Counted from the stretch's first letter, positions 6,840-21,885 are shown. The stretch: DNA of 47,310 bases from Bacilli bacterium (GCA_051872415.1 JBJEDW010000042.1:1-47310); one strand, 5' to 3'. Notes: generated from the letters alone by a model not told the origin. Program-made: numbers and translations.

Positions 6840-7409
6840 TTAATTAATGCATCCAGTAAAATAGTTTTCTACTACTCTTAGATACTGTTTAAAAATATTA
6901 GCTTTTTTAATATTTGAATCTGATAAAAGCGGAATTTCTTTTATTATTTTATTTTCATCTTTTAAATAAAGTTTACCTATTTCCTCCCCTTTCTTGATTG
7001 GATAATTTATATCTCCTAGTTTTATTTCATAAGTATAAGTTTTATTTTTTTCTCCTTTTTTTACTGTTACTTTAACATTTTCTCCTAAAACAAGATTAAC
7101 TTTGTTTTTGTTTGCTTTGTTAAGTTTTATTTCTTTTATGATTTTACCTTTAGAAAAAATGCTTTTACTTTCATACTGATTATATCCATAATCAAGTAGT
7201 GCCATTGTTTCGCTATTTCTAGTTGTAGTGTTATCATATCCTAGACTTATTACTATTAATCTAAGTCCATTTTTTTCAGCAGTTACTGCGATTGATGACC
7301 CTGCTTCATCTGTATAACCTGTTTTTAATCCATCTACTCCTTTGTAAAATTTAACAAGTTTAATTGTGTTTAAGTTTTGCAATAAAAATGCCTCTAATAT
7401 CAAATCCAT
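6840..7409 (-). pseudogene. 3' (C-terminal) segment of a split serine-type D-Ala-D-Ala carboxypeptidase. The native part is 6840..7354; codons upstream of the core derive from the element.
   Basis: KGVDGLKTGYTDEAGSSIAV carries the KTG box and is followed by a PBP5-type C-terminal beta-domain. There is no signal peptide, SxxK or SxN. The first 19 codons (MDLILEAFLLQNLNTIKLV) lie inside the inserted element. Confidence 0.85.
7342..7354. repeat. left junction core (att-like) TTGTAAAATTTAA
   Basis: 13 bp identical to 21233..21245, in the same reading-frame register of the dac gene (K-F-Y codons). It sits within the near-palindrome TTGTAAAATTTAACAA (7342..7357). Confidence 0.75.
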
Positions 7410-7465
7410 TATTGATTTTATTATATCATTTATGCATAATTTATGATAGATATTAAAGAAAAAAA

Positions 7466-7819
7466 TTAATTTAAATTGTTAATATAATCTCTAAGTTTTA
7501 GCAATGATCTACTTTTTACCCTAGAAACTTTATATTGTGGTATATCAAGTATTTTAGCTATTTCTTTTTGTTTATACTCCCTACATCCAATACCAAATGT
7601 CATTTTTATAATTAAATATTCCAATTCGTTTAAATTATTTTTTATAATATTATATAAGTCAATAGATGATTCTTTTATAATTACACTTTCTAATATATTT
7701 ATACTTTCATCTTTTATTGTATCCTTTATAGATAAATTATCGCTAATTTCTTCTTCTATTGAAATATTTGAATTAGTATTATTTTTTATAAATTTTAATA
7801 TTTCATTTTTTATACACAC
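7466..7819 (-). CDS. sigma-70 region-4-like HTH protein (no regions 2 or 3)
   Basis: The C-terminal LEYLIIKMTFGIGCREYKQKEIAKILDIPQYKVSRVKSRSLLKLRDYI resembles a sigma-70 region 4 / ECF-type HTH. The N-terminal half is low-complexity. GTG start. Confidence 0.55.
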   Translation of the reverse strand: MCIKNEILKFIKNNTNSNISIEEEISDNLSIKDTIKDESINILESVIIKESSIDLYNIIKNNLNELEYLIIKMTFGIGCREYKQKEIAKILDIPQYKVSRVKSRSLLKLRDYINNLN

Positions 7820-7924: not shown

Positions 7925-8428
7925 GTGAATATGGAAACTATAGATTTATATGACAAAAACAAAAATAAATTAAACAAAACTTTTATCAGAAAAAAAGATA
8001 CTCTTTTGGAAAACGAATATTATTTACTTGAACAAGCTTGGATTGTTAATGACGAAGGAAAAATATTGTTAACGCAGAGAGGATTAAATAAATCTCATGG
8101 CGAAATGTGGGAAGCTACTGCAGGGCATGTAAAAGCAGGAGAAACGGATATGGAAGGTATTTTAAGAGAAATAAAGGAAGAAATTGGTATCACATTAAAA
8201 AATAGTGATTTAAATTTTATAAAATCACTAATCATTAAACAAGGTATTTTAGATATTTGGCTTGTAAGAAAAAATATTAATCTTTCAAACATTAAACTTA
8301 GAGAAAGCGAAACTATTGATGTAAAATATGTCTCATTTGAAGAATTTAAAAAAATGTATAACAATAAAGAAATCGTTCAAAATTTAGACTATTTTTTTGA
8401 TATTTATAAACAATATATTAATAAATAA
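7925..8428 (+). CDS. Nudix hydrolase
   Basis: Nudix box GHVKAGETDMEGILREIKEEIGI. Confidence 0.85.
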   Translation: MNMETIDLYDKNKNKLNKTFIRKKDTLLENEYYLLEQAWIVNDEGKILLTQRGLNKSHGEMWEATAGHVKAGETDMEGILREIKEEIGITLKNSDLNFIKSLIIKQGILDIWLVRKNINLSNIKLRESETIDVKYVSFEEFKKMYNNKEIVQNLDYFFDIYKQYINK

Positions 8429-8471
8429 AAGCACTAAAATGTTTCATTCTTATTAGTAACTTTTATATTAT

Positions 8472-8963
8472 TTACTTTTCTATATAAGTAGTAAATATTA
8501 CTTCATTATTATTTATCTTATCGATTTGCCCTTTTAAAAAATCAGGTTTTATAGGAGCATTATCAAGATTATTAATATCAAACCATTTGAAAACTAAATT
8601 TTCTGTTTTTTCTACTCCATTAAATTCTTCATCTTCAAAGCAAATCCATTCATCGTTTTCTACATTAACAATGTAACTAAAAATATATTGATGAATGTCA
8701 GTTTTATCAAATGTAAAAAAATACTCTGATACACTATTACATCTTTTTATTTCAAATCTATTTATATTTAATTCTTCTTGTAATTCTCTTTTTATTGTAT
8801 CAACGCTTTGTTCACCTACCCGTACTTTTCCTCCAGGTAAAGCCCAAAACTCGTCTTGTTTTCTTTTTTGAAATAAAACTTTACCATCTTTTTCTATAAC
8901 AGCAACTGCTCTTATATTTAATAAAACATCACAAATTTTTACATTTATATCTTTTTCTTTCAT
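8472..8963 (-). CDS. Nudix hydrolase (paralogue of 8969..9463)
   Basis: Nudix box PGGKVRVGEQSVDTIKRELQEELNI. It shares the N-terminal K-I-C-D-V-x-x-N-x-R-A-V-A motif with its neighbour. Confidence 0.85.
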   Translation of the reverse strand: MKEKDINVKICDVLLNIRAVAVIEKDGKVLFQKRKQDEFWALPGGKVRVGEQSVDTIKRELQEELNINRFEIKRCNSVSEYFFTFDKTDIHQYIFSYIVNVENDEWICFEDEEFNGVEKTENLVFKWFDINNLDNAPIKPDFLKGQIDKINNNEVIFTTYIEK

Positions 8964-8968
8964 TTAAT

Positions 8969-9463
8969 TCATCTCCTTATTTTTGATTTTACCATATTTT
9001 TTTTAGGATTATCAATAAGTTCAATTAATTTTTCTTTTATTTCTATTGGAGCAATAGAAATACTATTCAAATCATCTTCATTGAACCATGCATATTTTAA
9101 ATGCTTGTTTACTTCAATACCATCAAAATATTTTGTATCTTTTATTTTACTACCTTCTTTTAAAGAAGCCAAATACATAAACATATATTCATGAAATTTT
9201 TCATTATCATAGGTAAAGAAATTTTCAAAAAATCCCATACTTTCATTTATTTCAACTTCTTCTCCTATTTCTTCTTTTAACTCTCTTTTTATTGTTTCTC
9301 CACCTGTTTCTAATACAGCTATCTTCCCACCTGGTAAAGACCAAATTGTGTCTTTTTCTCTTTTTTGAAATAAAATTTTATCATTATCAACAATAATAGC
9401 TACAGCTCTACAATTAACCCTAACATCACATATCTTAAATGTTATATCTGTTTTTTCTGCCAT
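8969..9463 (-). CDS. Nudix hydrolase (paralogue of 8472..8963)
   Basis: Nudix box PGGKIAVLETGGETIKRELKEEIGEE. Confidence 0.85.
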   Translation of the reverse strand: MAEKTDITFKICDVRVNCRAVAIIVDNDKILFQKREKDTIWSLPGGKIAVLETGGETIKRELKEEIGEEVEINESMGFFENFFTYDNEKFHEYMFMYLASLKEGSKIKDTKYFDGIEVNKHLKYAWFNEDDLNSISIAPIEIKEKLIELIDNPKKNMVKSKIRR

Positions 9464-9465
9464 TT

Positions 9466-10404
9466 TTAATCTCTCCTTTTTAATAATATTTTTTTTACAC
9501 TTTCAATTGTTTCATTTTCACAATCAATCCCCTGAATCATTTTTGTAACAAATGTATCTGAAAAATCAAATTTATTTCTATAATGTCCAACTAATTCATT
9601 CATATAATTTTTTTGACTTGGAAAAGAATTATCTCCCATAACATAACTATCCATTATTCTATCAATTTGCTCTGGTGGAATATATTCCATTTTTAAATTA
9701 GTAGAATGTAAGTCATAATCACATAAAATAATCGTATTAAAACTAACATTTGATTTCATAGAGGTTTGAAAATAAATTGGAATATCTTTATTTTCAATGA
9801 ATGTTTTACTTATTTCAGAAATATGATATGAATCAATTTTATCTGATATATTAGAAATATCATTGTCAGATATTCCCATTGAAAAAGGAATTCCACATAT
9901 TTTTGTTTCATCTTTACATTTTTTTATTGCAATCCTATCGTTTGCAACAAATCCATAACCATTTTGTAATAGTTTAATCAATAAAGTTGTTTTACCACTT
10001 CCAGCATTTCCTGTGATAATTACTCCTTTATCATCCTTATATGCACATGCACCATGTAAAATACAATATCCTTCTTTTTGAAAAACCTTAATCCACGTAG
10101 TGGTAAAAATTCTTTTTACAAATGATTTCTTTTCGCTTGAATAATATGGTAAATAAACATTTAAACTATTACCATTCTTTTTTATATAATTATACGAAGT
10201 ATCATTTTTTTCTTTATCCATATATTTGGGATCTTCTGGAATACCTATTAAAAAGTTTATTTCATATTTTATATCAGTTATAGGGTCATTATAATAATCA
10301 CCAAACATATCTATTAAATCATCAATAATTTCACTACAAAAAGAATTAACTTTTATTGATATATCATTACATGAAAATATATAGTTACTCACTTGTTCTA
10401 TCAC
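9466..10404 (-). CDS. HPr-kinase C-terminal-domain-like P-loop protein (HprK-related kinase)
   Basis: LHGACAYKDDKGVIITGNAGSGKTTLLIKLLQNGYGFVANDRIAI matches the HprK-like pattern (H-G ... G-x-S-G-x-GK-[ST] ... DD/ND). Confidence 0.6.
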   Translation of the reverse strand: MIEQVSNYIFSCNDISIKVNSFCSEIIDDLIDMFGDYYNDPITDIKYEINFLIGIPEDPKYMDKEKNDTSYNYIKKNGNSLNVYLPYYSSEKKSFVKRIFTTTWIKVFQKEGYCILHGACAYKDDKGVIITGNAGSGKTTLLIKLLQNGYGFVANDRIAIKKCKDETKICGIPFSMGISDNDISNISDKIDSYHISEISKTFIENKDIPIYFQTSMKSNVSFNTIILCDYDLHSTNLKMEYIPPEQIDRIMDSYVMGDNSFPSQKNYMNELVGHYRNKFDFSDTFVTKMIQGIDCENETIESVKKILLKRRD

Positions 10405-10427
10405 TTCCTTAATTCTCTCTTAAAATA

Positions 10428-11411
10428 TTATTTTCGTACTCTTTTATATTCATCTAAAAATTCTTTATCCATAATTTCTCTTATAAAATCATCTCTAAAT
10501 TCAATCATAAATTTTATATTATTAATTATTTCTTCATAAGATATTGCAAGTTTTTCGCAAATTGGATTTAATTCATTATATAATACCAATTTTGATGAAT
10601 TTGTGAATTCATCATAAGATAGATGTCTATATAGATTTATTTCAAAATTGCAATACTCTATCGATTCATCTATTGGATTTAGTTTAATATATGCCCTTTT
10701 ATTCACATTCTTACTAAATATAATTGCCTTATAATTACTCAATAATTTATAACTAATAGGAAATAATAATTCTCCCACGTTTTCAGTTCTAAAATTTGGA
10801 TTAAATATTTCGTATAATCTATGTGGATAATTTGTATATGAATATTGGCTTTTTCCAAATGCATCTAGTGCATATGGATAATCATCATCTCCTGTTTTTT
10901 TTATTTCTATTTTTAAATCTGGCTGATCGCAAATAGTAGATGTTCTATCTTTTTCAAAAACCATTGGTTCTTTTATTTTTAATCCTGGATCATATATAAC
11001 ATAATTTACCGAATCATCTTTAACTGTTGGATATAATAAAGAAATATGTGATTCCTTTACTTTTTTATCTCCAATGGATAATGCATAATTATTTGCTTTA
11101 TGTGATAAAAAATATGTTCTTACTCCATAATTATTTAATTTTTCTTTTAATACTTTGCATAAGTAATAACAATTATATCTAGTAGTTTCAAAATCAGCAA
11201 CTTTTAAAGAATTATATGTATCAATTAAAGACTTTATATAATTTTCCCTTAATAAAGTAATCATATCAAAGCTATTAATTGAATATTCTTCCAAAACTTC
11301 ATCTATCAAACTTGTAGTTTCTTCAATTATTTTTTCATCATATTTAGGAAATTCGTCCCCACTTAATCTTTGTTTTATAATACTAAATTCTTTGTCTCTT
11401 ATAATTTCCAC
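10428..11411 (-). CDS. hypothetical protein (possible Cys/His/Asp papain- or NAT-like fold)
   Basis: 327-aa ORF in the operon. Ordered NCYYLC ... SHISLLY ... VIYDPG could form a C-H-D triad, which is speculative. The GTG start overlaps the upstream gene by 29 nt. Confidence 0.5.
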   Translation of the reverse strand: MEIIRDKEFSIIKQRLSGDEFPKYDEKIIEETTSLIDEVLEEYSINSFDMITLLRENYIKSLIDTYNSLKVADFETTRYNCYYLCKVLKEKLNNYGVRTYFLSHKANNYALSIGDKKVKESHISLLYPTVKDDSVNYVIYDPGLKIKEPMVFEKDRTSTICDQPDLKIEIKKTGDDDYPYALDAFGKSQYSYTNYPHRLYEIFNPNFRTENVGELLFPISYKLLSNYKAIIFSKNVNKRAYIKLNPIDESIEYCNFEINLYRHLSYDEFTNSSKLVLYNELNPICEKLAISYEEIINNIKFMIEFRDDFIREIMDKEFLDEYKRVRK

Positions 11412-12168
11412 TTTTGTTTTCCCTCACTTTATTTGTAGATAAAGATTGTTTTTTCATTGAATAATTATCCATTAAAATAAACAATTCTTCTAAATCCATA
11501 TCACTATACAAAAATTTTTCTATTAAGCTTAACTTATCTAAATAAACATGGTTATCATTTATTTCATTAGGTTCTTCATACTCAAGCATTGTTTTAATTT
11601 TTGAATATGCTTTTTCTAGTATTTCTTTTGTTTCAGATTTCAAAAGTGCTTTTAAAGTATATCCCAATATTCCAGCAATAGTTATATTTTCATTCAAGAA
11701 ACTATCTCTAAACTGAATCAAATTTTCTGACTCAATATTTTTGATTTTGTTTTTGTATAAACATGGAGTTAAATCTACATATACTAACTCTTCATCGTTA
11801 TATATAAAATTTTTTAAATTCCAATCTAAGCATAAATTTTCATCTTGTTTACATAATTTATATAAATTAGCATATTTTGAAAATATTTGTAATTTATAAT
11901 CAATATCATATTTTTTTTCAGATAGTATATCTTCTAAAGTAGAACCTTCAATATATTCTTGAATTAAAACTTTGTAATTGGAAAATTCTAATTCATCATA
12001 AATTCTTGCTGTTTTTATTCCTAATCTATTAATATCTTGTTCATATTGTTTAACATTTTCAAAATTTATCTCAGACATAACTTGATTGAATATTTCATCA
12101 CCACTTTTAGAAATCTTAATTATATATTTATCTAATTTAAATACATCATTGAATGTTCCACTTTCCAT
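11383..12168 (-). CDS. protein-kinase-fold (APH/choline-kinase-like) protein, divergent
   Basis: A lysine-containing N-lobe (YIIKISK), the hinge IQEYIEG, the catalytic-loop-like DWNLKN (DxxxxN) and VYVDL. Confidence 0.5.
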   Translation of the reverse strand: MESGTFNDVFKLDKYIIKISKSGDEIFNQVMSEINFENVKQYEQDINRLGIKTARIYDELEFSNYKVLIQEYIEGSTLEDILSEKKYDIDYKLQIFSKYANLYKLCKQDENLCLDWNLKNFIYNDEELVYVDLTPCLYKNKIKNIESENLIQFRDSFLNENITIAGILGYTLKALLKSETKEILEKAYSKIKTMLEYEEPNEINDNHVYLDKLSLIEKFLYSDMDLEELFILMDNYSMKKQSLSTNKVRENKSGNYKRQRI

Positions 12169-13024
12169 TTTTTATTTCCCCCAAAAACTTTTTTGTTATT
12201 TTATAATTAAGTTTATAAAAATCAGTATCTTGTTGATTGTTTATAACACACCAATATAAAGAAGTATATGAATCAAAGAAACTATAAAAGTTTAACTTGT
12301 CATCAAAAAAATCATCTAATTCTTTTATTTCTTTATATCCATTTAATAAAATATTAAAGTTTCTTTTATTAAATATTCTATTCATTTTTACAAAGTCAAA
12401 AATATAATCACCATTTTTCATACTTTCCAAATCTATTATTCCAACATTATGATTAGTACCAAAAATAACATTACCTATTCTAAAGTCCATATGACAAATA
12501 CTATTTTTATAATTATTTTTTATTTTTTTATTAATATAATTATTTAATGTATCATAAATTAAATCATTGTCTTTTTTTGTAAAAATTTCTTTAGTTACTG
12601 CAGATGTTTTATCTAAACAATTATTTAAATATGTAATCCAGGAATCATCATCTTTATCTATAATTTTACAACTATGTATTTTAGCTAATAATTTACCTAC
12701 TTCAAATATAGCATTTTTATCTAAATTATTACATTCTTCATCAAATATACTTTTACCTTCAAATTTAGTAAATATATTATATTCATATTCACCATAAGTA
12801 CCACTATCAATAACTTTTGAGGTAGGAACAAAATCATATAAATAATTATAATATTTTGCTTCATTAATTCTTTTTGATAAAGTTTTTGATATTTTAAAAA
12901 TATATTCTTCATCTGTTGAATTTACAATATATACTTTAGAATTATATGAATTTGTTGCTAGCTTAATTTTCTTAGCCTCAATATTATTTTTTTTAAATAT
13001 TTCTATTATATCTTTCTTTTTCAT
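12146..13024 (-). CDS. aminoglycoside/choline-kinase family phosphotransferase
   Basis: Brenner-type motif CHMDFRIGN (HxDxxxxN) followed by GIIDLE. The N-lobe has YIFKISK. Confidence 0.75.
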   Translation of the reverse strand: MKKKDIIEIFKKNNIEAKKIKLATNSYNSKVYIVNSTDEEYIFKISKTLSKRINEAKYYNYLYDFVPTSKVIDSGTYGEYEYNIFTKFEGKSIFDEECNNLDKNAIFEVGKLLAKIHSCKIIDKDDDSWITYLNNCLDKTSAVTKEIFTKKDNDLIYDTLNNYINKKIKNNYKNSICHMDFRIGNVIFGTNHNVGIIDLESMKNGDYIFDFVKMNRIFNKRNFNILLNGYKEIKELDDFFDDKLNFYSFFDSYTSLYWCVINNQQDTDFYKLNYKITKKFLGEIKNGKWNIQ

Positions 13025-13026
13025 AA

Positions 13027-14331
13027 CTACCTCTCTGTCTTTTTATATACAATATCTTTTTTTGTAAATTTACTAACAATTAATCTTTTTAAATATATTA
13101 TAAACCCAGACGGTCTAAATATAAACCAAATTGGAGAGATTAGAAATGCTAAAAGCACATTTAATTTATTATCCTTTTTAAAATTATTTATTTTTATAAT
13201 TATATAAGATGCTATACACCATAAGTAAGGAATTGATAGTAATAACCAAAAACCCATACTGAACTTAAATATTACAATCGAATATATATAATAACCAAAT
13301 ATAAAATATGGAAATATTGTAAAAACACTAAGATTACCTAAACCAATAATAAGCATTTTTATTTTTCCAAAAATATACTTATTACTTATATTTTTTATTT
13401 CGCTAAAAAATGTAAGTGTTCCTTTAAATATCAGTGTTGCACTATTCATATAACTATATAAATCATTATATATTAAAGTATAATTATATGATGGCAAATA
13501 AGAAAATTTTGCATTTTTTATGGACAATCTAAATCCTAATGTTAAATCATCTACAAAAAATGGAAATTTATCATTTTCAATTAATGTATTTAATTTTAAA
13601 TGCATGCAAGCACCCATACAATATTGTGGTATGGTGTGATTTGTTAAAGAGCAAAATAACAATTTAAATTTTTCGACTGCACAAGACCTTATTATATGTT
13701 GAAGTGTATATAAAACTAACATAACATTAGATGTTTTTTGTGATAAATCTTCATAATTTTTAAGACACAAAGGAACTTGCCCAATAACATCTGGATTATT
13801 TTTAAATTCTGCAACTACATTAACTTTCTCAAAAGTATCAAGTTCTGGTTTAGAATCAAAATCAAATACTGAAATATACGTATTTTCAAGATTTGGCTTT
13901 AAGTATTCGTTAATATAATCAATAGCATAGTTCATTTGTGATGATTTATTACCATTGGTTTTGGGATAATGCAAATGAATAAATCTATTATCTTTAATTT
14001 GTTTTAAATATTTATCTACTACAGTGTTAGTTGTTTGTTCTTTTACTTTATTTAATTTATATTCATTATCTTCTTTCTCACTAGTTATTATTATAAACTT
14101 TATTTTACCTTTGTATTTATATTTACTAAACCAATCTATTGTACTTTTTACTATTTTTTGTTCTTTAAGTGCTGGAAGTAATACATATATATCTTTATAT
14201 TTTTTAATTTTAATTCTTCCTAATTTTTTAATATATTTTTTTTCTAAGAAAATTGTCAATATAGTAAGTATAAAACCAAAAACATATATCACAAAAAGTG
14301 AAATAGCAATTATATTCAAAATTTTATTCAT
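13027..14331 (-). CDS. membrane-embedded family 2 glycosyltransferase
   Basis: An N-terminal TM helix, a GT-A core (VLLPALKEQ, DFD, FVDDLTLGFR) and several C-terminal TM helices. The start shares 1 nt with the upstream stop (TAATG). Confidence 0.7.
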   Translation of the reverse strand: MNKILNIIAISLFVIYVFGFILTILTIFLEKKYIKKLGRIKIKKYKDIYVLLPALKEQKIVKSTIDWFSKYKYKGKIKFIIITSEKEDNEYKLNKVKEQTTNTVVDKYLKQIKDNRFIHLHYPKTNGNKSSQMNYAIDYINEYLKPNLENTYISVFDFDSKPELDTFEKVNVVAEFKNNPDVIGQVPLCLKNYEDLSQKTSNVMLVLYTLQHIIRSCAVEKFKLLFCSLTNHTIPQYCMGACMHLKLNTLIENDKFPFFVDDLTLGFRLSIKNAKFSYLPSYNYTLIYNDLYSYMNSATLIFKGTLTFFSEIKNISNKYIFGKIKMLIIGLGNLSVFTIFPYFIFGYYIYSIVIFKFSMGFWLLLSIPYLWCIASYIIIKINNFKKDNKLNVLLAFLISPIWFIFRPSGFIIYLKRLIVSKFTKKDIVYKKTER

Positions 14332-15971
14332 TAATTAGACTCCTTTCTCCCTAACTGGTTATTTAAAATTTTAATTCCCTGTAAGAAAAATGCTAACTGT
14401 CTATCTGGATAGTCTTCATGTAGAGGTATCATAGATATAAATAATAGCCCTTCAATCAATTCTATATCATCTATATTAATACCTTTATTTTTAAGATATA
14501 AATCATAATAGCTATAATTGATGTTCTTGTAAAACAATATATTATATTTATTATTATCTTCTTTCTTCACTTCAAATAAATCATTTATTATCTCATCATA
14601 TCTTCCATGATAACTATGTCTTATTTTTGCCAAATCATATCTATAATCTCCATAGATAGTATCCTTACCAAAATTACCACGTGGATCAATAAATTTATAT
14701 ATCATATTTCTCGGAGAAAACAATATATTTACAAAGCAAGGATCTCCATGAATTATACTAATGAAATCATTTGTTGTTTCAATAATATGATTTAGTCTTT
14801 TTTCTAATTTTTCTAATAATGGTAAAATACCTAAATATTTTTCATTATTTATATAAATTACTTTTTTATTCTTTAATTCTTCATAATTCCATTCTTTCAA
14901 TCTACTTATTGTTTTATTCATTAATATTTCTTTAGTATAATTTTTAAAATTCATATTTTTTATTTTATTTGTATCATATATCTTAAATAATTTATCAATT
15001 AAATTCTTAAATATATATTCTTTACTATAATATGTTAATGGATAAAAAGTATAATATTCTGACAATGTTAAATAATCATAAAATTCTATTCCATATTTAT
15101 TTTCAGTTTCATCTACATCAAATAACTTTGGAGTAATTTTACTAAAATTTGTATTTTCTATTTGTTTAAACCATTTAATTTCAGAAGAAATACTTTCATT
15201 GTCACTTTTTTTAGATAAAACCCCAAATTCATCTAATGTTATATTATTATAAAATCTACAATTAAAACTATTTTTATTAGTCTTTGAATAACCTTCCAAA
15301 GTTCCTATATCTTGCCAGTTATCTATGTTTTCTATCAGTAATGGTTCTTTTTTTCTATACTCTTCAAAATATGATGATAGTTGATATTCACCTTTTATTT
15401 TTTCTATTTTGGTATTTAATACTTTTTTCAGTAATTTACTATTCTTGAAGAAATAAATTCCTACCGCTGCATCATTACTGTCAATATTAGTAGTAGGTTT
15501 ATCAATAATTTCTGTTATAACATTATTCTTATTCTTTATAATACAATATTTATATAACTCTTCATCTTTGACTTTTGAAGTACCTATCCAACTATTATTA
15601 TAATTTTTTGGATAACAACAAAAAGTATCGGATAATAGTAATAAAGTTGATTTACTTTCATTAATATAATCTTTTGTGATTTCAAGTGCTTTCCCAGGAC
15701 CAGAAAAATCATTTTGAATAATATAATTTATATTAATATCAATATTACAAAATGATTCATTTAAAAAATCTCTAATCATCATTTCATTTTCTTTATTAAC
15801 TACTAAAATTATTTCTTTTAAACCTTTTTTTATCAATGGAACAATCATATTGTAAATGAAAGGTTTTTGCTTAACGCTTAGTAACCCTTTTGGAAATCCC
15901 ATAGTAAGAGGATATAATCTTGAAGATTTACCACCCATCAAAATAATTAATTGTTTATCATTAAAATTCAT
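14331..15971 (-). CDS. fusion protein: sugar-phosphate nucleotidyltransferase (N-terminal) + APH/choline-kinase-like phosphotransferase (C-terminal)
   Basis: The N-terminal ILMGGKSSRLYPLTMGFPKGLL is the G-x-G-x-R-L ... PK nucleotidyltransferase signature. The C-terminus has IIHGDPCFVN (HGDxxxxN) and FIDPRG. Confidence 0.75.
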   Translation of the reverse strand: MNFNDKQLIILMGGKSSRLYPLTMGFPKGLLSVKQKPFIYNMIVPLIKKGLKEIILVVNKENEMMIRDFLNESFCNIDININYIIQNDFSGPGKALEITKDYINESKSTLLLLSDTFCCYPKNYNNSWIGTSKVKDEELYKYCIIKNKNNVITEIIDKPTTNIDSNDAAVGIYFFKNSKLLKKVLNTKIEKIKGEYQLSSYFEEYRKKEPLLIENIDNWQDIGTLEGYSKTNKNSFNCRFYNNITLDEFGVLSKKSDNESISSEIKWFKQIENTNFSKITPKLFDVDETENKYGIEFYDYLTLSEYYTFYPLTYYSKEYIFKNLIDKLFKIYDTNKIKNMNFKNYTKEILMNKTISRLKEWNYEELKNKKVIYINNEKYLGILPLLEKLEKRLNHIIETTNDFISIIHGDPCFVNILFSPRNMIYKFIDPRGNFGKDTIYGDYRYDLAKIRHSYHGRYDEIINDLFEVKKEDNNKYNILFYKNINYSYYDLYLKNKGINIDDIELIEGLLFISMIPLHEDYPDRQLAFFLQGIKILNNQLGRKESN

Positions 15972-15974
15972 ATA

Positions 15975-16814
15975 CTACCTCCTTAATTTTTTTATAAATT
16001 CCAAGCTTTCATCATCCTGTAAACCAATTTTTGGGGTACTTTTTTCATTATGAAAATCGCTTCCACAAGTCTTTAACAATCTAAATTTATCTGCTAAACT
16101 CTTAAGAAATATGATTTGTTTAGATGTTGTTTTATCCAAATTATTAATTTCTATTCCATCTAATCCTTGTTCTACTAGTGTTTTGACAAATAATTCTAAT
16201 TCTTCATTATCATATTTCATTGAAAAAGGATGAGCTAAAACAGCATAGCCACCATTATCTTTGATTAACTTTATTACATTATTAGCGGTTAGAGATACTT
16301 TTTTTTCATAACATGGAGATTCTTTACTCGTATATAAATATCCTGCTTGTATGTAATTATCAGCATAATTATTTTTTATTAACCAATTTGTTATATCACG
16401 TTTACTTAAAGTGCCATCTACTGAATTTAATAATAATTCTTCTATGTCAATTTTTATCCCATAAACTCTATAAATGTTTTCTATTATCTTTTTTATAACA
16501 TAAAAGTTTTTATTATTAATATCATCTAACGCATTTTTAACATTATATATATTTTCTATTCCATAACCTAAAATATGTAAAAATCTGTTTTCTTCAACAT
16601 CAAATTCAATAGCAGGTATTATTGCAACTTTTTGATTCTGTGAATATTTTTTAAAAAATTCTTTATTTATTTCTTCTTCGTTCTTTTTCTCTATATAATT
16701 GTGATCAGCAAATGATACCACTTCAAAATTGTTTTCATTAAAATATCTTAACAATTCCAATTTGCTATATTTCCCATCAGAACAACTACTGTGTATGTGT
16801 AAATCGTATTTCAT
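15975..16814 (-). CDS. PHP-domain phosphoesterase
   Basis: N-terminal YDLHIHSSCSDG and later HNY / HIL / AHP / SDFH metal-ligand-like histidines, typical of the PHP family. Confidence 0.75.
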   Translation of the reverse strand: MKYDLHIHSSCSDGKYSKLELLRYFNENNFEVVSFADHNYIEKKNEEEINKEFFKKYSQNQKVAIIPAIEFDVEENRFLHILGYGIENIYNVKNALDDINNKNFYVIKKIIENIYRVYGIKIDIEELLLNSVDGTLSKRDITNWLIKNNYADNYIQAGYLYTSKESPCYEKKVSLTANNVIKLIKDNGGYAVLAHPFSMKYDNEELELFVKTLVEQGLDGIEINNLDKTTSKQIIFLKSLADKFRLLKTCGSDFHNEKSTPKIGLQDDESLEFIKKLRR

Positions 16815-16816
16815 TT

Positions 16817-17188
16817 TTATCTTCCTATCAATTCATTTATTTCTTCTTTAGTTAAGTTTAATAATTCATTTGGTCTAATAGTTCTATCATCTACATAAAA
16901 GCCATTTTTCCCTGGATATGGTTTACCAAAAATAATTTCATCATATGGTATTTCCCATTTTGATAGCCATTTTTCAAGTATTGGTTTAGTATTTTTTAAA
17001 ATCAAATCTATATTACCATTATAAGTTCTCATGTTTCTAGCAGTAAATAAAACTATTTTATATCCATCTTTTTTTAATTCTCTTATTTTACTTACCATAT
17101 CAGGAAATGGTACTAAGTCTTCATATTTTTCTTCTTCTTTTTTTATAGGACAAATAGTTCCATCTATATCAAAAATTATTGAATTCAT
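16817..17188 (-). CDS. HAD-superfamily phosphatase-like protein
   Basis: Motif I IIFDIDGTI, motif II-like LFTAR, and a late DD. 4-nt overlap (ATGA) with the upstream gene. Confidence 0.65.
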   Translation of the reverse strand: MNSIIFDIDGTICPIKKEEEKYEDLVPFPDMVSKIRELKKDGYKIVLFTARNMRTYNGNIDLILKNTKPILEKWLSKWEIPYDEIIFGKPYPGKNGFYVDDRTIRPNELLNLTKEEINELIGR

Positions 17189-17718
17189 ATCTCATTCCTC
17201 CTGATTTTCAAAAATAATTCATTCCAGTTAGTAACTCTATTTTTAATATCTTTATATTTATTTTTATCATCAAATATTATTACTTTTATACTATCTTTTA
17301 GTTCATTATAAATGTCGATACTATCATCAATCATTAAATCTATCTTATTTTCCAGACATTCTTTTTTCTTATACTTTTCTGTTAGAATAAGTCTTTTATA
17401 TGGAATATTATATTGCTTTAAACTTTTTTCTGTAAATTCATACATATTTTCACAATATTCTTTACTTCTTGCTGAAATTATATATATTTCATTACCATCA
17501 TTAATAAGTTTATTTAAGTTTACTAAAACATCTTTTTTTAATTTCACATCCGAAAATATCAAATTTAAATTTTTCTTAATGTAATCCACTCTATTTTTTC
17601 TAATATTCCATAATTCATGTTCTGTTATATTTTTTTCCTTTAAATATAAACTCTGATATTTTTTATATTGTTCATCTGTACAAAAAATTGTATTATCTAA
17701 GTCAATACCAATCCTCAT
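17185..17718 (-). CDS. HAD-like nucleotidase/phosphatase
   Basis: Motif I IGIDLDNTI, IISARS, and IDDS near the C-terminus. First gene of the operon, with AGGAGG 8 nt upstream of the ATG. Confidence 0.6.
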   Translation of the reverse strand: MRIGIDLDNTIFCTDEQYKKYQSLYLKEKNITEHELWNIRKNRVDYIKKNLNLIFSDVKLKKDVLVNLNKLINDGNEIYIISARSKEYCENMYEFTEKSLKQYNIPYKRLILTEKYKKKECLENKIDLMIDDSIDIYNELKDSIKVIIFDDKNKYKDIKNRVTNWNELFLKIRRNEI

Positions 17719-17905
17719 TGTTTTTCTCCTCCTAAAATAAGAAAAAACGTCAATAAACTTTAATAAGTGTAAATGACGTTATTAGATATTAAAAAAAAAT
17801 TCATTTAAATTAGAGAATGAAAAACACTTATAATATATTAATTTTATAACACTATTATATAGTTTATCATACATAAAATCACCCTCTTTTCAAACAATTG
17901 ATAAT

Positions 17906-17934
17906 AATATACACTAAAACTAAACTAAAGTCAA
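17906..17934 (-). promoter_or_regulatory. candidate sigma-A-type promoter of the cargo operon (TTGACT-17-TATATT)
   Basis: On the minus strand the -35 TTGACT is at 17934..17929 and the -10 TATATT is at 17911..17906, with a 17-nt spacer. It is bracketed by the 10-bp inverted repeat AAACAATTGA/TCAATTGTTT (17892..17901 and 17931..17940). Confidence 0.45.
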
Positions 17935-18056
17935 TTGTTTTTAATTTATATATTTTTATTTATACATTTCTATTTCCAATATGAAAAGAACAATATTCTA
18001 TCATTCAAATAATGTTCTTTATTTTTTTGTACACATTACTAATGTGTTAATGCTTA

Positions 18057-18470
18057 TTATTTAACAATAATTTTTTTAATGTTAGGCCATGTTCCATAAT
18101 AATAGTTTCCAGATACTTTTTTAACTGCTCTTAATTTAAATTTATATGTTTTGTTAGAAGAAAGTTTTTTAACTTTGTAACTTGATTTTGAAACATAAAT
18201 ATATTTCCAAGTGTTTGAATTAGATTTTTTACAACCTATTTGATAAGTAACATTTCTTGCTGATACGTAATAAGAAACTTTAATTGCTTTTTTTCTTTGC
18301 TGCTGAATTTTTAATAACAATTTTAACAGATTTTATTTTGAAAGTTTTGGTTATTGTTCCTGCATAATTTCTTTTTATTGTTACTGTTGCATTTACAATA
18401 TATTTATTATTTCTATGGGAAACTGTGTAATCTTTCCCTTTTACTAAAGTTTTTTTAACACTTTTTACTA
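18057..18470 (-). pseudogene. frameshifted remnant of a cell-surface repeat protein (Fn3-like C-terminal module)
   Basis: The 87-aa ORF reads ...KVKKLSSNKTYKFKLRAVKKVSGNYYYGTWPNIKKI, which is Fn3-like. Another frame of 18320..18470 reads ...KDYTVSHRNNKYIVNATVTIKRNYAGTITKTFKI, a common clostridial surface-repeat pattern. There is no start codon or signal peptide. Confidence 0.5.
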
Positions 18471-19112
18471 TGATTTTTTAATATTTTCTTTTTTCACTAA
18501 ATCACTTGTTTGAATTATTTCTAGATCATCCATATTCAACTCTTTTATATCATTAATAAATTGTTCTTTTACACTTTCTGGAACCATATTAATTTTTCCA
18601 CCAATTATATCTACTATTGGGACTAATTCAGCTGAATATACTCCTCTATTAGCATAACTAGCATCAGTAAATTCAGGCCCCTTACCAGTACCTATATCTC
18701 CATTAATATGCTCTGCTAATAAGAAATATTGATTTTCCTTTTCAGTTTGATACTCATAAATAGGTTCTTCTTGTATTATTTCTACATCTATACCTATTTC
18801 TTCTTTTAGTTCCCTTATCGTAGTTTCACTTAATGTTTCATTACTTTCTATACCACCGCCAGGTACAACATAGTATTCATTTTTAATGCCATCTTTAACT
18901 TTTATTCTATGCATTAATAATAATTTGCCATCTTTTATTATTAATCCACCTGCTCTTGATCTCATTTCTTTCTTCCTCCTTATATCACTTACTATATTAT
19001 ATACTGATTTTTCTAAACGTTCAATTGTTCCGTCATTGCATATTACGTAATCAGCACTATTTTTAACTTCATTAGCACCTTTACTTAATTTTTTATTATC
19101 TTTAATATCCAC
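18468..19112 (-). CDS. Nudix hydrolase with an N-terminal extension resembling the C-terminal end of dephospho-CoA kinase
   Basis: Nudix box PGGGIESNETLSETTIRELKEEIGID. The N-terminal ADYVICNDGTIERLEKSV resembles a CoaE C-terminus. The GTG start lies only 5 codons after an in-frame stop; an internal Met before the Nudix fold is an alternative start. Confidence 0.7.
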   Translation of the reverse strand: MDIKDNKKLSKGANEVKNSADYVICNDGTIERLEKSVYNIVSDIRRKKEMRSRAGGLIIKDGKLLLMHRIKVKDGIKNEYYVVPGGGIESNETLSETTIRELKEEIGIDVEIIQEEPIYEYQTEKENQYFLLAEHINGDIGTGKGPEFTDASYANRGVYSAELVPIVDIIGGKINMVPESVKEQFINDIKELNMDDLEIIQTSDLVKKENIKKS

Positions 19113-19352: not shown

Positions 19353-19538
19353 CTAATATGGTTTTAATTCGTTAAGCTTAACTTTAGCATCCTTTAATGA
19401 TTTAAATTCAAAAATATAATTTAAATTTATAGTATTATTTGAGACTAAGCATTTTTCTATAACATAATTATTTCCTTTTTTTATTAGAGAAATAATTATT
19501 CCTTTATTATCATATATATCAATCAATTTTTCTTTCAT
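19353..19538 (-). CDS. small hypothetical protein immediately downstream of the recombinase (possible directionality factor; unproven)
   Basis: 61-aa ORF starting 2 nt after the recombinase stop and followed by a terminator. No motif recognised. Confidence 0.4.
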   Translation of the reverse strand: MKEKLIDIYDNKGIIISLIKKGNNYVIEKCLVSNNTINLNYIFEFKSLKDAKVKLNELKPY

Positions 19539-19540: not shown

Positions 19541-21004
19541 TTACCTCTTAAATTCTACAGATTTTATTATAATATTTTTTGTATCTTTTACAACTTCTAT
19601 CTTCTCTACAAATCTTTCTAAAAATTGCATTTTTTCTTTATTAGTAAGGTTTTCCCAATTTAATTTTATATTTGTAACTAAATCCTTTACATCATCATAA
19701 GAAATATCCTTTTTTCCATCATCAATATCTTTATTAATTTCTTCAAGTTCATTCTTATAAATTATTTGCATATTATTAATTTCTTCAGTAATAGTTCTAT
19801 ATTCTTTAGCAGTTAATAAATCATTTATAAAATCATTTCTAATTGTTTTTTTCTTATTTTCAAAACTCTCTATTTTTTTTAAAATAGAAGCTTTTCTCTT
19901 ATTATTTGATGTTAAATCTTTATTTTTTTTCAGTATTGATTCATCTGGTTTCATATTTTTTAGTGTAGATAAATACTCTAGAAAAGATTTTTCCATATTT
20001 TTATGAGAAAATCCACCGCAATCACAAGCACCACGACATGCATTATTGCATCTATATGTGATATATAATTTTCCATATTGTGTTTGTTGTCTTGCACAAA
20101 TATTGCCTCCACATTTTCCACATTTAATAATATGAAAATAATAAGAATTTTCACTTGGATATCTTCTTACAGAGTAATGCTTTCTAGTTTTAATTGTTTT
20201 ATTTGCAAGTTCCCATTTATCATTTTCAATAATTGGTTCTATTTCATTACCATCAACAGTAAATGACTTATCTTTAATTTTACCTGTAACACCATATCTT
20301 ACTTTACCAACATAAAGTGGATTATTAATTATTGATTTAATTGTAGCAGGAGCCCAATGTCCTCCTCTTTTAGTGGGTATACTTTCTATATTAAAAAGTT
20401 TAGCAATTTTAAAATATGACATTCCATCAATATACAAATCAAAGATTCTATTAACTAAAGCTTTTTCTTCTTCATTTACTACAAGCTTTCCTTCTCCTAC
20501 AATATAATCATAACCATACACACCATTTGTATTAGTATAATTTCCTTCTCTTGTTTTTTGTTCATATCCAAATGAAACTCTTTCAGCCAAATTTTCTCTT
20601 TCAAATTCTGCAAATATTCCTATTATTTTTACAAACATTCTACCAACTGCATTAGATGTATCAATTTTTTCTGTTTGAGAATTAAATGTACAAGAGTGGT
20701 TTTCAAATAATTCGATTAAATATATTAAGTCTCTAACACTTCTGGTTAAACGATCTAGTTTATATATCAATATATTATTTACTTTTCCTTCTTTTACATC
20801 TTTTAAAAGTCTTGAAACTTCAGGTCTTTCATTTAAATTTTTTCCACTAATTCCATCATCTACATAATAATCATAAATAAACCAATCATTAGCTTCGGCA
20901 TATTTTGTTAATTTTTCTCTTTGGGCATGAATAGAAAAACCATCTTTTGCTTGATCTTCAGTTGATACACGAATATATATACCTGTTGATATTCTTTCAT
21001 TCAT
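19541..21004 (-). CDS. large serine recombinase (SpoIVCA/SprA/phage-integrase type)
   Basis: The N-terminal resolvase catalytic domain has YIRVSTEDQ...DGFS...Q. It is followed by a recombinase domain, a Cys-rich zinc-ribbon region (CGKCGG...YRCNNACRGACDCGG) and a C-terminal coiled coil. 487 aa. Confidence 0.9.
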   Translation of the reverse strand: MNERISTGIYIRVSTEDQAKDGFSIHAQREKLTKYAEANDWFIYDYYVDDGISGKNLNERPEVSRLLKDVKEGKVNNILIYKLDRLTRSVRDLIYLIELFENHSCTFNSQTEKIDTSNAVGRMFVKIIGIFAEFERENLAERVSFGYEQKTREGNYTNTNGVYGYDYIVGEGKLVVNEEEKALVNRIFDLYIDGMSYFKIAKLFNIESIPTKRGGHWAPATIKSIINNPLYVGKVRYGVTGKIKDKSFTVDGNEIEPIIENDKWELANKTIKTRKHYSVRRYPSENSYYFHIIKCGKCGGNICARQQTQYGKLYITYRCNNACRGACDCGGFSHKNMEKSFLEYLSTLKNMKPDESILKKNKDLTSNNKRKASILKKIESFENKKKTIRNDFINDLLTAKEYRTITEEINNMQIIYKNELEEINKDIDDGKKDISYDDVKDLVTNIKLNWENLTNKEKMQFLERFVEKIEVVKDTKNIIIKSVEFKR

Positions 21005-21219: not shown

Positions 21220-21885
21220 TTATATGAGTTTATTGTAAAATTTAAACACGACTTTGTTTGTATTAACTATCCATGTTTTATTTTCTGTGTTTTCTCTAAT
21301 GTAGTCTTCATACTTACTGGTGTAATCAAGTATTTTTTTATGTTTAATAAGTTCTTTTGCGATGATTGCCATATCATAACTACTTGAATAGGCTCCTTCT
21401 TCATCAAACCCTGTTGAATTTACAAAGTTAGTATTTTTTAGTCCTAGTTTTTTAGCTTTTTCGTTCATTTGTTTTACAAAAGCTTCTTCTGTTCCACTTA
21501 CTCTTTCAGCCATAAGTACCATTGCATCATTAGCACTTGCCATGGTAATTCCCTTTAAAAGATCATCTACACTAATCTTTTCTCCTTCTTCAAGCCATAT
21601 TTGAGTTCCACCCATTTCTTTTGCATTTTTACTCACTGTTAATTGTTCGTTTATCTTTATAGAACCATCATCTATTTTTTCAAAAATAAGTAAAAGTCCC
21701 ATCATTTTTGTAAGTGACGCTACACTTTTTTTTGAATTAGCATTTTTATTATATAAAATTTCTCCTGTATCATAATCAATCATAACTGCAGATGATGCTC
21801 CTTTTGTTATATCAATTTCATTTGCATTTACGCTTAATGGTATAAATAAAAATGCTATCAGAAATGTAATAATTATTTTTTTCAT
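21220..21885 (-). pseudogene. 5' (N-terminal) segment of the split serine-type D-Ala-D-Ala carboxypeptidase. The native part is 21233..21885; the last 4 codons and the stop come from the element.
   Basis: Signal peptide MKKIIITFLIAFLFIPLSVNA, SxxK (SLTK), SxN (SAN), and an end at ...WIVNTNKVVFKFY/NKLI*. The KTG box is absent here and present in 6840..7354. Confidence 0.85.
21233..21245. repeat. right junction core (att-like) TTGTAAAATTTAA
   Basis: Identical to 7342..7354 and encodes K-F-Y of the N-terminal dac fragment in the same frame register. Confidence 0.75.

Follow-up and report, generated by a model that had tools for sequence, protein, structure and literature searches.

In the Escherichia coli phage HY126, AfhE acts both as a D-arabinose-5-phosphate 1-kinase and as a UDP-arabinose pyrophosphorylase, and AfhF is a Mg-dependent phosphatase that converts Araf-1,5-P2 to Araf-1-P (PMC13326640); RB69 gp52:53 and gp51 have been treated as analogues of AfhE and AfhF, and DLP3 gp82/gp81 constitute a further AfhE/AfhF-type module (PMC13326640). 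In spore formers, gene-intervening elements have been described for several genes, namely skin in sigK, SPbeta in spsM, gin in gerE, and yin in yabG (PMC4191935, PMC5595907, PMC10747680). Here, we describe a locus with likenesses to both kinds of system, contained in 47,310 nucleotides (nt) from a Bacilli bacterium (GCA_051872415.1 JBJEDW010000042.1:1-47310; approximately 23% G+C; this whole stretch is hereafter called the window). Within the window, an 11-gene operon that encodes relatives of the AfhE/AfhF pair together with a single membrane-embedded glycosyltransferase is the cargo of a serine-recombinase element. We assign a probability of roughly one half to the operon being a self-contained cassette that makes a synthase-dependent envelope glycan, be it a polymer resembling capsule or exopolysaccharide or a glycoconjugate anchored in the membrane. 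What we observe directly, and build this interpretation on, is the layout and intactness of the genes, the folds, homologies, and conservation of their products, the presence of only one membrane component, the genomic contexts of related loci, and the restoration in silico of a dac gene at the ends of the element.

The operon comprises 11 tightly spaced open reading frames (ORFs), all on the minus strand between 8472 and 17718. In order of transcription, they encode a 177-amino-acid (aa) HAD phosphatase (17185..17718), a 123-aa HAD phosphatase (HAD123; 16817..17188), a PHP phosphoesterase (15975..16814), a 546-aa nucleotidyltransferase-kinase (NTK; 14331..15971), the 434-aa glycosyltransferase (GT2; 13027..14331), an APH-family kinase (12146..13024), a divergent kinase-like protein of 261 aa (11383..12168), a NAT-fold protein of 327 aa (10428..11411), an HprK-like P-loop protein (9466..10404), and two Nudix hydrolases (8969..9463 and 8472..8963). 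An initial reading of this DNA, made by a model from the letters alone (the sequence-only reading), had proposed 11 such head-to-tail ORFs, and the ORF listing of the window bears this out, with overlaps of 4, 1, 23, and 29 nt and gaps of 2, 3, 2, 23, 2, and 5 nt at the junctions. Its domain assignments also held when we searched Pfam and NCBIfam with the 16 ORFs of the element that are at least 80 aa long plus a 61-aa ORF at 19353..19538, which had no match; for the 177-aa HAD protein, the assignment came through NT5C matches in its relatives. The window translations contain complete catalytic motifs (two DxDxT, HxH, GGxxxRL, HGDxxxxN, FDFDS and VDD, HxDxxxxN, GSGKT, and two Nudix boxes), and the window copy thus does not have the look of a pseudogene cluster. 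Hydropathy analysis places hydrophobic segments in GT2 only, the other 10 products being predicted to be soluble.

The putative sugar-activation pair consists of the second and fourth gene products. HAD123 carries the motif FDIDGT and is AfhF- and EcbF-BcbF-like, matching TIGR01689 (1.2e-37), a model of the "capsule biosynthesis phosphatase" type, as well as phrog_1238 (1.5e-23). NTK is AfhE-like, and joins an N-terminal sugar-1-phosphate nucleotidyltransferase (NTP_transferase, 7e-27; residues 6-233 match RmlA-type PDB entries) to a C-terminal ELK-fold kinase. Over its full length, NTK matches phrog_4098 and phrog_24015, and a tblastn search of phage genomes returned 374 records with full-length matches at a query coverage of 97-99% and an identity of 25-29%. 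In Enterococcus phage 9183, ORF047 (29% identical to NTK) directly follows ORF046 (39% identical to HAD123, 1e-28), and this pair sits among thymidylate-metabolism genes. In the RB69-like Mosigvirus JK36, JK36_00048 (25% identical to NTK over residues 6-540, 3e-22 by BLASTP) lies between the gene for an arabinose-5-phosphate isomerase and JK36_00047, which is 29% identical to HAD123 (4e-10); from the Mosigvirus membership of JK36 and the gene neighborhood, we infer that JK36_00048 and JK36_00047 correspond to the RB69 proteins. The kinase-domain motifs HGDPxFxN and FIDPRG are common to NTK and its phage homologue. Judged by these alignments, HAD123 and NTK are homologous, gene for gene and over their full lengths, to adjacent phage AfhF/AfhE-type pairs. 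On the strength of that homology, the same three-step logic probably applies, leading from a sugar phosphate through a bisphosphate and a sugar-1-phosphate to a nucleoside diphosphate sugar (NDP-sugar). Independent support for the bisphosphate route comes from a distant variant (L048), where genes for a PfkB kinase, a cytidylyltransferase-like protein, and an HAD_2 phosphatase stand in place of HAD123 and NTK, a non-orthologous displacement that follows the HldE/GmhB logic of ADP-heptose synthesis; the replacement genes adjoin a GT2 relative, two APH-like genes, an HprK-like gene, and a Nudix gene. Cellular relatives of NTK all come from metagenome-assembled genomes (MAGs) of uncultured Bacilli and Clostridia, where they are annotated as "hypothetical" or "sugar phosphate nucleotidyltransferase".

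Because the pair is homologous to phage DNA-hypermodification genes, one might suppose that the activated sugar is placed on the host's own DNA or RNA rather than on its envelope, as in the AfhE/AfhF phages. The operon does contain nucleotide-directed hydrolases, and a relative of the 261-aa kinase (not the window protein itself) gave a nonsignificant match (E = 0.08) to a 5-hmdU DNA kinase. However, the sole transferase present is an integral membrane synthase, Pfam and NCBIfam detected in the block neither a ThyA homologue that could serve as hydroxypyrimidine synthase nor a soluble DNA glycosyltransferase, and viral contigs, scanned with the GT2 profile, yielded no copy of the block. We consider nucleic acid glycosylation extremely improbable.

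GT2 is the component that would turn an activated sugar into an envelope product. The Pfam model Glyco_tranf_2_3 scores below threshold for the window protein (5.5e-4) and reaches E<=1e-5 in its relatives, and a sequence search of the PDB found no match to any solved synthase. An AlphaFold (AF2) model built from a 28-sequence alignment has a predicted local distance difference test (pLDDT) score of 92.8, and its best Foldseek match is the hyaluronan synthase (HAS) of a Chlorella virus (Cv-HAS; E = 1e-9, TM-scores 0.64/0.57, approximately 470 aligned columns). Further matches include Xenopus HAS1 (with HAS matches ranging from 1e-9 to 1e-7), BcsA (1e-7), chitin synthases, the archaeal PcManGT, and TarP, whereas GtrB is far weaker (TM-score 0.32). 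Hydropathy places transmembrane segments at residues 1-32 and approximately 326-412. The FDFDS and VDD motifs are invariant among the GT2 sequences aligned, and a C-terminal YKKTER tail, which one could speculatively picture as a gating loop, is nearly invariant in the 28-sequence alignment. GT2 is thus confidently modeled as a membrane synthase of the hyaluronan/cellulose-synthase type, with polysaccharide synthesis and translocation as its predicted functions. The sequence-only reading had remarked on the lack of a flippase, polymerase, or priming transferase, and of LicB and LicD; indeed, we found no priming phosphoglycosyl transferase, no flippase or ABC exporter, and no polymerase or TagF-like enzyme among the element ORFs searched, nor a LicB permease or LicD phosphocholine transferase. 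The lack of a flippase, polymerase, and priming transferase is accounted for by the presence of a single synthase-type GT2 as the only membrane protein of the operon.

In the cassette that we propose, the C-terminal kinase of NTK would phosphorylate C1 of a sugar phosphate drawn from central metabolism to give a sugar bisphosphate, HAD123 would take off the distal phosphate, and the RmlA-like N-terminal domain of NTK would turn the sugar-1-phosphate into an NDP-sugar. From this donor, the HAS-like GT2 would assemble the product, which it would probably also carry across the membrane. The soluble remainder of the operon (the APH-family kinase, the 261-aa kinase, the HprK/FomB-like protein, the PHP phosphoesterase, the NT5C-like HAD, the two Nudix hydrolases, and the NAT-fold acyltransferase) would act on the cytoplasmic side and may tailor or proofread phosphorylated sugar or nucleotide intermediates; alternatively, the kinases and hydrolases may recycle released nucleotides or control the synthase. 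Carried by a mobile element, such a cassette would alter the surface of its recipient, as prophage-encoded glycosylation genes do. The order of the reactions, the identity of the sugar, polymer formation, export, and any benefit to the host are the inferred parts of this scheme. A nucleotide-activated sugar installed on an envelope polymer by GT2 was one of two hypotheses of the sequence-only reading, and the AfhE/AfhF homology and the synthase fold favor it; its phospho-alcohol or Lic-like variant and its link to a spore polymer, in contrast, found no support.

Several findings weigh against the envelope-glycan interpretation. There is no named product, sugar, or acceptor, and three extra kinases and five phosphohydrolases, all without an assigned step, far exceed what a simple exopolysaccharide would need. 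No SIS-domain or other isomerase gene was found in the operon or the element (Pfam/NCBIfam), so the pair lacks an arabinose-5-phosphate isomerase partner, and for that reason the activated sugar is probably not that of the phages. The Q(Q/R)xRW motif was not found in GT2, which has no RW dipeptide anywhere, and thus processive polymerization is not assured; a conserved N-S-A-x-L-I-F-K-G (LIFKG) segment occupies the presumed QxxRW-equivalent interface helix, a position derived from the spacing after VDD and from helix 291-314 of the model. Several relatives of the operon carry in-frame stops or truncated genes (see below), and distant GT2 relatives occur in clusters with nonribosomal peptide synthetase (NRPS), PEP-mutase, and radical-SAM genes, which would fit a small-molecule product.

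The last of these points, and the missing processivity motif, lead to an alternative in which the product is not polymeric at all, but rather a small glycoconjugate, membrane-associated or secreted, for which a glycolipid bearing phosphate or a metabolite derived from a phospho-sugar or nucleotide would be examples. GT2 would then transfer only once, onto a lipid or small acceptor, whose phosphate groups would be built or masked by the kinases, phosphatases, and Nudix hydrolases. Consistent with this possibility, single-transfer PcManGT- and GtrB-type enzymes are among the Foldseek matches of GT2, relatives of GT2 at 24-27% identity stand in natural-product-type clusters (with NRPS, PEP_mutase, aminotransferase, pyridoxal phosphate (PLP) decarboxylase, methyltransferase, radical SAM, and ABC transporter genes), and the HprK-like protein resembles, over residues 95-262, the phosphonate-monophosphate kinase FomB. 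On the other hand, the longest and best structural matches of GT2 are processive synthases with C-terminal channel helices (TM-score 0.64 for Cv-HAS versus 0.32 for GtrB), and the chemistry of the window variant consists entirely of group transfer, with no enzyme of the scaffold-forming, redox, or aminotransferase kind. We judge a non-polymeric product to be rather unlikely.

A survey of gene neighborhoods shows that the block is more than a chance assembly, since the same 11 genes recur in the same order, at 43-78% protein identity, in independent gut metagenome assemblies. Over the same comparison, the expectation that GT2 would be the best-conserved protein proved wrong: HAD123 (72-78%) and the 163-aa Nudix hydrolase (66-75%) exceed GT2 (64-66%). 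At the DNA level, the 12.5-kb region had no match in phage and plasmid collections. The contexts of the block are varied: it occurs with a serine recombinase in loci L002 and L004 (followed, in L002, by an apparent truncated penicillin-binding protein (PBP) gene), with TraG and a serine recombinase in L003, and with two tyrosine integrases and ParA/ParB in L006, whereas in L008 it is followed by Band_7 and ffh and in L021 it lies between a sigma factor gene, Ham1, and GNAT genes. The block is thus often found on mobile DNA, but is not confined to serine-recombinase elements.

Gene order around GT2 was also examined in a wider metagenome scan of the GT2 family, which comprises 118 clusters. In close relatives, NTK lies directly upstream of GT2 in all 12 cases, and the APH gene lies directly downstream in all 10 whose contigs reach that far. 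The PHP gene immediately precedes NTK in 9 of the 10 with long enough contigs (in L023, a Nudix gene and HAD123 intervene). The 261-aa kinase gene comes after the APH gene in these close relatives, with the positions of the HAD, NAT-fold, HprK-like, and Nudix genes being variable. More distant variants sit among chromosomal genes: L014, between recA/relA/ppdK and a LysR regulator, has an HAD123-HprK fusion, PHP, NTK, GT2, APH, kinase, Cof HAD, and Nudix genes, and L016, beside dnaX/ybaB/recR, has Nudix, HAD, GT2, kinase, HprK-like, NTK, and His_Phos_1 genes. Such a position of the core variants among housekeeping genes is as expected for a cell-envelope function. Even at 23-37% identity to GT2, an NTK, HprK-like, PHP, or Nudix gene stands beside the GT2 relative in 14 of 17 informative loci, and most GT2 relatives in the 23-29% range keep such neighbors. 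From these comparisons, the core consists of GT2, NTK (or an equivalent), the HprK-like protein, a small kinase, one or more phosphatases, and a Nudix hydrolase, kept down to 25% identity; the NAT-fold protein and the NT5C-like HAD are accessories of close variants.

Some distant loci keep NTK, APH, PHP, or HprK-like neighbors around GT2 relatives of 24-27% identity while having a rather different complement of other genes. In L018 (and in the P0129 contig), NRPS, PEP_mutase, 2-hydroxyacid dehydrogenase, Amidohydro_2, HpcH/HpaI aldolase, and NTP_transf_5 genes surround the GT2 relative; in L020 and L050, its surroundings include aminotransferase, PLP decarboxylase, U32, and methyltransferase genes, with radical SAM enzymes in L020 as well. 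These clusters may make phosphonate- or amino-decorated products.

Not all copies are intact. In-frame TAA stops interrupt the NT5C-like HAD gene in L021 (L021:6822) and NTK in L027 (L027:9154), and the 261-aa kinase gene has a stop at the same site in four loci (L024:4584, L035:5732, L036:11749, and L037:7654). In L035-L037, only a broken C-terminal half of GT2 is retained, near a recombinase-like fragment. These in-frame stops and GT2 remnants indicate that some relatives are decaying. GT2 itself also bears null alleles in otherwise well-preserved operons. The copy at L003:7040-8347 has a GAA>TAA change at codon 98 as its sole difference in 9.5 kb from the locus that includes the L002:3975-5282 copy, and the copy at L004:4829-6138 has a 1-bp deletion near codon 406, with three other substitutions in 9.5 kb relative to L002. 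There are thus two independent null alleles, from different samples, in operon copies otherwise 99.96-99.99% identical. Either loss of the synthase has been selected, or these are assembly errors. Repeated gene inactivation is a pattern typical of surface-glycan genes, and a recurrent inactivation of the synthase would suggest a product under strong fluctuating selection, for example by phages or host immunity.

Searches of characterized pathways yielded no family match to the whole block and no literature describing this gene set, in agreement with the earlier remark that no named pathway fits. A bolder claim would be that, in uncultured Bacilli and Clostridia of the gut, the block and its wider family represent a previously unrecognized pathway to an envelope glycan, in which a QxxRW-less HAS-like synthase is obligatorily coupled to an AfhE/AfhF-type line, an HprK/FomB-like kinase, ELK kinases, and Nudix and PHP enzymes to make a new (pyro)phosphorylated glycan or glycolipid, the pathway being moved by mobile elements from host to host, whose surfaces it would change. 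We advance this claim only tentatively, and rate it as doubtful rather than probable. If the cassette model proposed above is correct, lineages of gut Firmicutes that are represented largely by metagenomic data (MAGs of Bacilli, Erysipelotrichaceae, Mycoplasma-like bacteria, and Clostridia) would own a dedicated, horizontally mobile surface-glycan route, the surface glycan would be drawn from central-metabolism sugar phosphates, an evolutionary link would exist between a phage DNA-arabinosylation enzyme pair and a bacterial envelope pathway, and a rare NAT-fold family, an HprK-like family, and a divergent kinase family would gain their first context.

Among the remaining operon proteins, the HprK-like protein, a soluble core protein of 312 aa, matches Hpr_kinase_C (2e-7), HprK_rel_B (1e-11), and, over residues 95-262, the NCBIfam FomB model (1e-5); it has Walker A and ANDR motifs and aligns with the HprK catalytic domain, and its profile matches PDB entry 2qmh at 9e-5. 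Its full-length family is rare (12 representatives at E<=1e-30 among 1.84 billion). At L014:6232-7584 (also in P0264, and probably at L032:46-1440), a single polypeptide of 450 aa combines a HAD123 homologue with the HprK-like protein, the HAD part of the L014 fusion being 67% identical to the window HAD123, and this fusion argues that the P-loop protein acts in the sugar-phosphate steps rather than on a protein substrate. A candidate orthologue of the HprK-like protein at L010:3920-4720 was ruled out, as it is a Cof-type HAD.

The PHP phosphoesterase (279 aa) is a metal-dependent enzyme of the TrpH/YciV type (PDB 9etk, 3e-15, and 7ug9). In NCBIfam, it matches 3',5'-nucleoside bisphosphate phosphatase (1.7e-25) and RNase RNM of the RNase AM type (8.5e-25), both scores falling far below the curated equivalog cutoffs. 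That the PHP and P-loop proteins form a CpsB/CpsD-like tyrosine phosphoregulatory pair was considered and ruled out, given the TrpH/YciV type of the former and the HprK-like, rather than BY-kinase, nature of the latter. The APH-family kinase (292 aa, HMDFRIGN) matches Pfam APH at 1.3e-18. The divergent protein-kinase-like protein of 261 aa belongs to the core; it carries LDWNxKN and YVDLTP motifs in alignment, its matches to Bud32, DUF6206, and ABC1 are weak, a sequence search of the PDB gave no match, and it has homologues in L014 (27%, 3e-20) and L016 (28%, 2e-7). The 177-aa HAD phosphatase (IDLDNT) is similar to NT5C, a 5'(3')-deoxyribonucleotidase, through matches to phrog_420/415 and, in relatives, to PF06941; the window copy had no Pfam match, and no homologue was found in L014 or L016. 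Both operon Nudix genes have Pfam scores of 1e-14 to 1e-17: the 164-aa hydrolase (NUDIX, 1.8e-14) is a tandem paralogue approximately 42% identical to its neighbor, and the 163-aa hydrolase encoded by the last gene (NUDIX, 1e-16) is a core protein, whose identity of 66-75% in the 11-gene relatives falls to 49% in L014 and 41% in L016.

The 327-aa protein, which has an arylamine N-acetyltransferase (NAT) fold, is an accessory, found only with close variants. It had no sequence match in Pfam (Acetyltransf_2), NCBIfam, or the PDB, and its NAT likeness is visible by structure prediction only: the AF2 model has a mean pLDDT of 89.5, and all 18 significant Foldseek matches in the PDB are NATs or the NAT-fold amide synthase GdmF (E = 2e-7 to 7e-4, probability 1.0, TM-scores 0.43-0.55). 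Residues C81, H122, and D141, invariant in 11 sequences of the family, form a candidate triad with spacings of 41 and 19 residues, which we take to resemble that of NATs. Transfer of an acyl group from acyl-CoA to an amine is a natural guess at its activity. The protein is rare, with 15 clusters in 5.8 billion proteins and occurrence in 4 of 185,579 species genomes, all four being MAGs of uncultured gut Bacilli, Erysipelotrichaceae, or Mycoplasma; a comparison of the model with BFVD found no relatives.

The abundance of enzymes acting on nucleotides bears on the other hypothesis of the sequence-only reading, namely that the operon is a nucleotide-centered anti-phage or conflict module in which the Nudix, NT5C-like, PHP, and kinase proteins would exhaust or modify nucleotides when infection occurs. 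The mobile element does bring together four Nudix genes, an NT5C-like nucleotidase, and a PHP protein resembling a pNp phosphatase, one Nudix protein matches the PADLOC candidate model PDC-S07 (6e-17), and the sugar-activation genes have phage homologues. Nevertheless, a PADLOC scan of 10 of the 11 operon proteins (all but the 163-aa Nudix encoded at 8472..8963) gave no significant full-length match, and matches other than PDC-S07 were weak P-loop or kinase segments at E>=4e-4. Moreover, the conserved core is a membrane synthase with NDP-sugar enzymes, none of the proteins is a sensor or effector of any known type, and the core variants sit among recA/relA/ppdK, dnaX/ybaB/recR, and ffh, not in defense islands. 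A defensive role accordingly seems very unlikely, and the hypothesis drew no support from PADLOC, the viral-contig scan, or the housekeeping contexts.

The region upstream of the first HAD gene contains a candidate promoter and leader (17733..17934, minus strand), with a -35 box at 17934-17929, a -10 box at 17911-17906, a leader ORF of 30 codons (17782..17874), and a hairpin with a T-run (17733..17780). A promoter at about 17.9 kb had been suggested previously; taken alone, the -35/-10 match at 17934-17906 does not stand out from chance (146 such matches versus 138 expected in the region), but a TTGACA-17-TATAAT box occupies the equivalent place in five relatives (L002, L006, L008, L021, and L022). 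The window and these five loci share one leader arrangement upstream of the first HAD gene of the 11-gene variant: a near-consensus promoter, a AAAAAGGGTG ribosome-binding site, an ORF of 30-39 codons, and a hairpin with a T-run. The peptide and even the reading frame of the leader ORF vary between relatives, and the ORF extends at its 3' end into the 5' arm of the hairpin, which is kept in position and shows weak covariation (five sequences). Rfam contained no riboswitch or leader family matching the region upstream of the operon, its sole match in the window being a T-box elsewhere. The arrangement looks like translation-coupled attenuation.

A leader ORF overlapping a terminator-like hairpin is also reminiscent of the attenuators of inducible resistance genes, and the operon could be imagined as an inducible cassette that modifies antibiotics or other xenobiotics by phosphorylation, nucleotidylation, glycosylation, or acylation. 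The operon is indeed mobile, and its products include a kinase of the APH family, an acyltransferase with the NAT fold, a nucleotidyltransferase, and a glycosyltransferase. However, the nucleotidyltransferase is of the RmlA sugar-1-phosphate type and not of the ANT/Lnu type, the glycosyltransferase is a polytopic synthase and not a soluble GT1 enzyme of the macrolide/rifampicin kind, and 11 co-conserved genes far exceed any known resistance determinant. In addition, core variants are chromosomal, and L014 and L016, both examined, have no such leader. We regard drug modification as highly improbable.

The element that carries the operon spans approximately 13.9 kb (roughly 7355-21232). It encodes a large serine recombinase of 487 aa (19541..21004, minus strand; Resolvase 7.5e-41, Recombinase 6.7e-23, Zn_ribbon_recom), located 228 nt from the right copy of a 13-nt direct repeat, TTGTAAAATTTAA, whose left (7342..7354) and right (21233..21245) copies are the candidate att core. 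The repeat also occurs at 21188-21200, and these three copies compare with 0.06 expected in the window by chance. One Peptidase_S11/PBP5_C DD-carboxypeptidase is divided between the flanking ORFs, with its N-terminal part in 21220..21885 and its C-terminal part in 6840..7409. The dac 5' half (21223..21885, minus strand) covers Peptidase_S11 model positions 11-198 (1e-58), and the 3' half, from the att core onward (6840..7354, minus strand; KGVDGLKTGYT...), covers positions 191-237 and PBP5_C. When joined in silico at the repeat, the halves give a DD-carboxypeptidase of 384 aa (...NTNKVVFKFY followed by KGVDGLKTGYT...), residues 30-358 of which align colinearly, across the KTG motif, with solved DD-carboxypeptidases (4k91, 4.6e-57); the match to Bacillus subtilis DacB (3mfd) is 1.7e-41, other DD-carboxypeptidases scoring higher. 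As the rejoined halves form an intact, colinear gene, excision at the repeat would restore it. A dac gene is absent from two papers on intervening elements that were checked for it; if this model is correct, a DD-carboxypeptidase gene joins those split by recombinase-bearing intervening elements. The earlier description of the block as element cargo thus stands for the window, on the basis of the recombinase, the repeat, and the split dac gene, but does not extend to all relatives: the set recurs as a block, often on mobile DNA, and not always beside a serine recombinase.

Apart from the operon, the element holds a few small ORFs, a 117-aa protein with sigma-70 region 4 only (7466..7819, minus strand; Sigma70_r4, 1.9e-8) at its end, and the two further Nudix genes that had been noted previously, one convergent with the operon (7925..8428, plus strand; NUDIX, 6e-14) and one of 214 aa between the operon and the recombinase (18468..19112, minus strand; NUDIX, 9e-13). 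The nearest relatives of the former lie 5-6 kb from GT2 in distant variants (L038-L044). At the recombinase end, a 19-nt direct repeat, TTTAAATTTTACAATAAAC (minus strand), occurs in two copies 45 nt apart (21183-21246); the outer copy includes the att core, and the inner copy may be left over from a previous insertion or serve as another site for the recombinase. In L002 (10898-13729), 57 nt after the serine recombinase gene, there is a 346-aa ORF with Transpeptidase and PASTA domains only, possibly the 3' portion of a class B PBP gene into which that element has inserted; if so, such elements would tend to target peptidoglycan-synthesis genes.

Several other features of the window are recorded here for completeness. 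Just outside the element are a fifth Nudix gene (3474-3896, plus strand), giving five Nudix genes within 16 kb, and a gene for a Fic-domain protein (4487-5617, minus strand). The gene that follows the T-box leader (32426-32630, minus strand; 126 bits) encodes an aminoacyl-tRNA synthetase of class II, Asp/Lys/Asn-type (31019..32389). A further region (34159-46864, minus strand) looks type VII secretion-like, with a 1561-aa FHA and FtsK/SpoIIIE (EssC-like) ATPase, several ORFs of approximately 100 aa, and a protein of 1493 aa that Pfam does not match; cell-wall enzymes are encoded close by, namely an M23/glucosaminidase/C39-like protein and a transglutaminase-like protein with a YkuD L,D-transpeptidase.

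How, then, does the locus compare with described systems? As a mobile element, it resembles skin/SPbeta-type elements in having a large serine recombinase, an insertion inside a coding sequence, and a gene that excision at a short direct repeat would restore; it differs in splitting a DD-carboxypeptidase gene and in carrying a metabolic operon rather than prophage remnants. As a putative envelope locus, it stands apart from Wzx/Wzy- or ABC-dependent capsule and teichoic acid loci, every hallmark gene of which is missing from the block. With the Lic-type phosphocholine system, it shares the use of a kinase and a nucleotidyltransferase to activate a head group, and NTK has a weak match to LicC (1jyk, 6e-6); yet NTK is nearer to RmlA, the NTK/HAD123 pair is nearer to AfhE/AfhF, and the block has no LicB or LicD. 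Gtr clusters and TarP decorate an existing polymer using host-made donors. The window block would likewise represent a mobile, GT2-based, envelope-altering function, but brings its own donor synthesis and a synthase-type enzyme.

The block would operate like a synthase-dependent polysaccharide locus supplied by an AfhE/AfhF- or HldE/GmhB-like activation line; it belongs to no named system. Synthase-dependent systems, exemplified by HAS, BcsA, PgaC/IcaA, and chitin synthase, share with GT2 a polytopic architecture, a GT-A domain, a DxD motif, a VDD/TED-like motif, and C-terminal transmembrane helices, and these systems, like the block, dispense with Wzx/Wzy, an ABC transporter, and a priming transferase. 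The block differs from them in lacking QxxRW and the PilZ/c-di-GMP, PgaB/D, or Bcs partners, and in accompanying its synthase with kinases, an HprK-like P-loop protein, and PHP and Nudix enzymes. The route of sugar activation resembles that of the ADP-/GDP-heptose pathway (HldE or HddA/HddC plus GmhB), in which a sugar phosphate passes by way of a 1-kinase to a bisphosphate, and then through an HAD phosphatase and a nucleotidyltransferase; here, however, the enzymes are of other folds, and there is neither a GmhA isomerase nor a lipopolysaccharide context. With the AfhE/AfhF module, the operon shares a nucleotidyltransferase-ELK kinase fusion beside a small HAD phosphatase, full-length homology, and conserved kinase motifs. 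The differences lie in the level of identity (25-39%), in the lack of an isomerase, a hydroxycytosine synthase, and a DNA arabinosyltransferase, and in the destination of the activated sugar, which we take to be a membrane synthase encoded on a bacterial chromosome or element rather than phage DNA.

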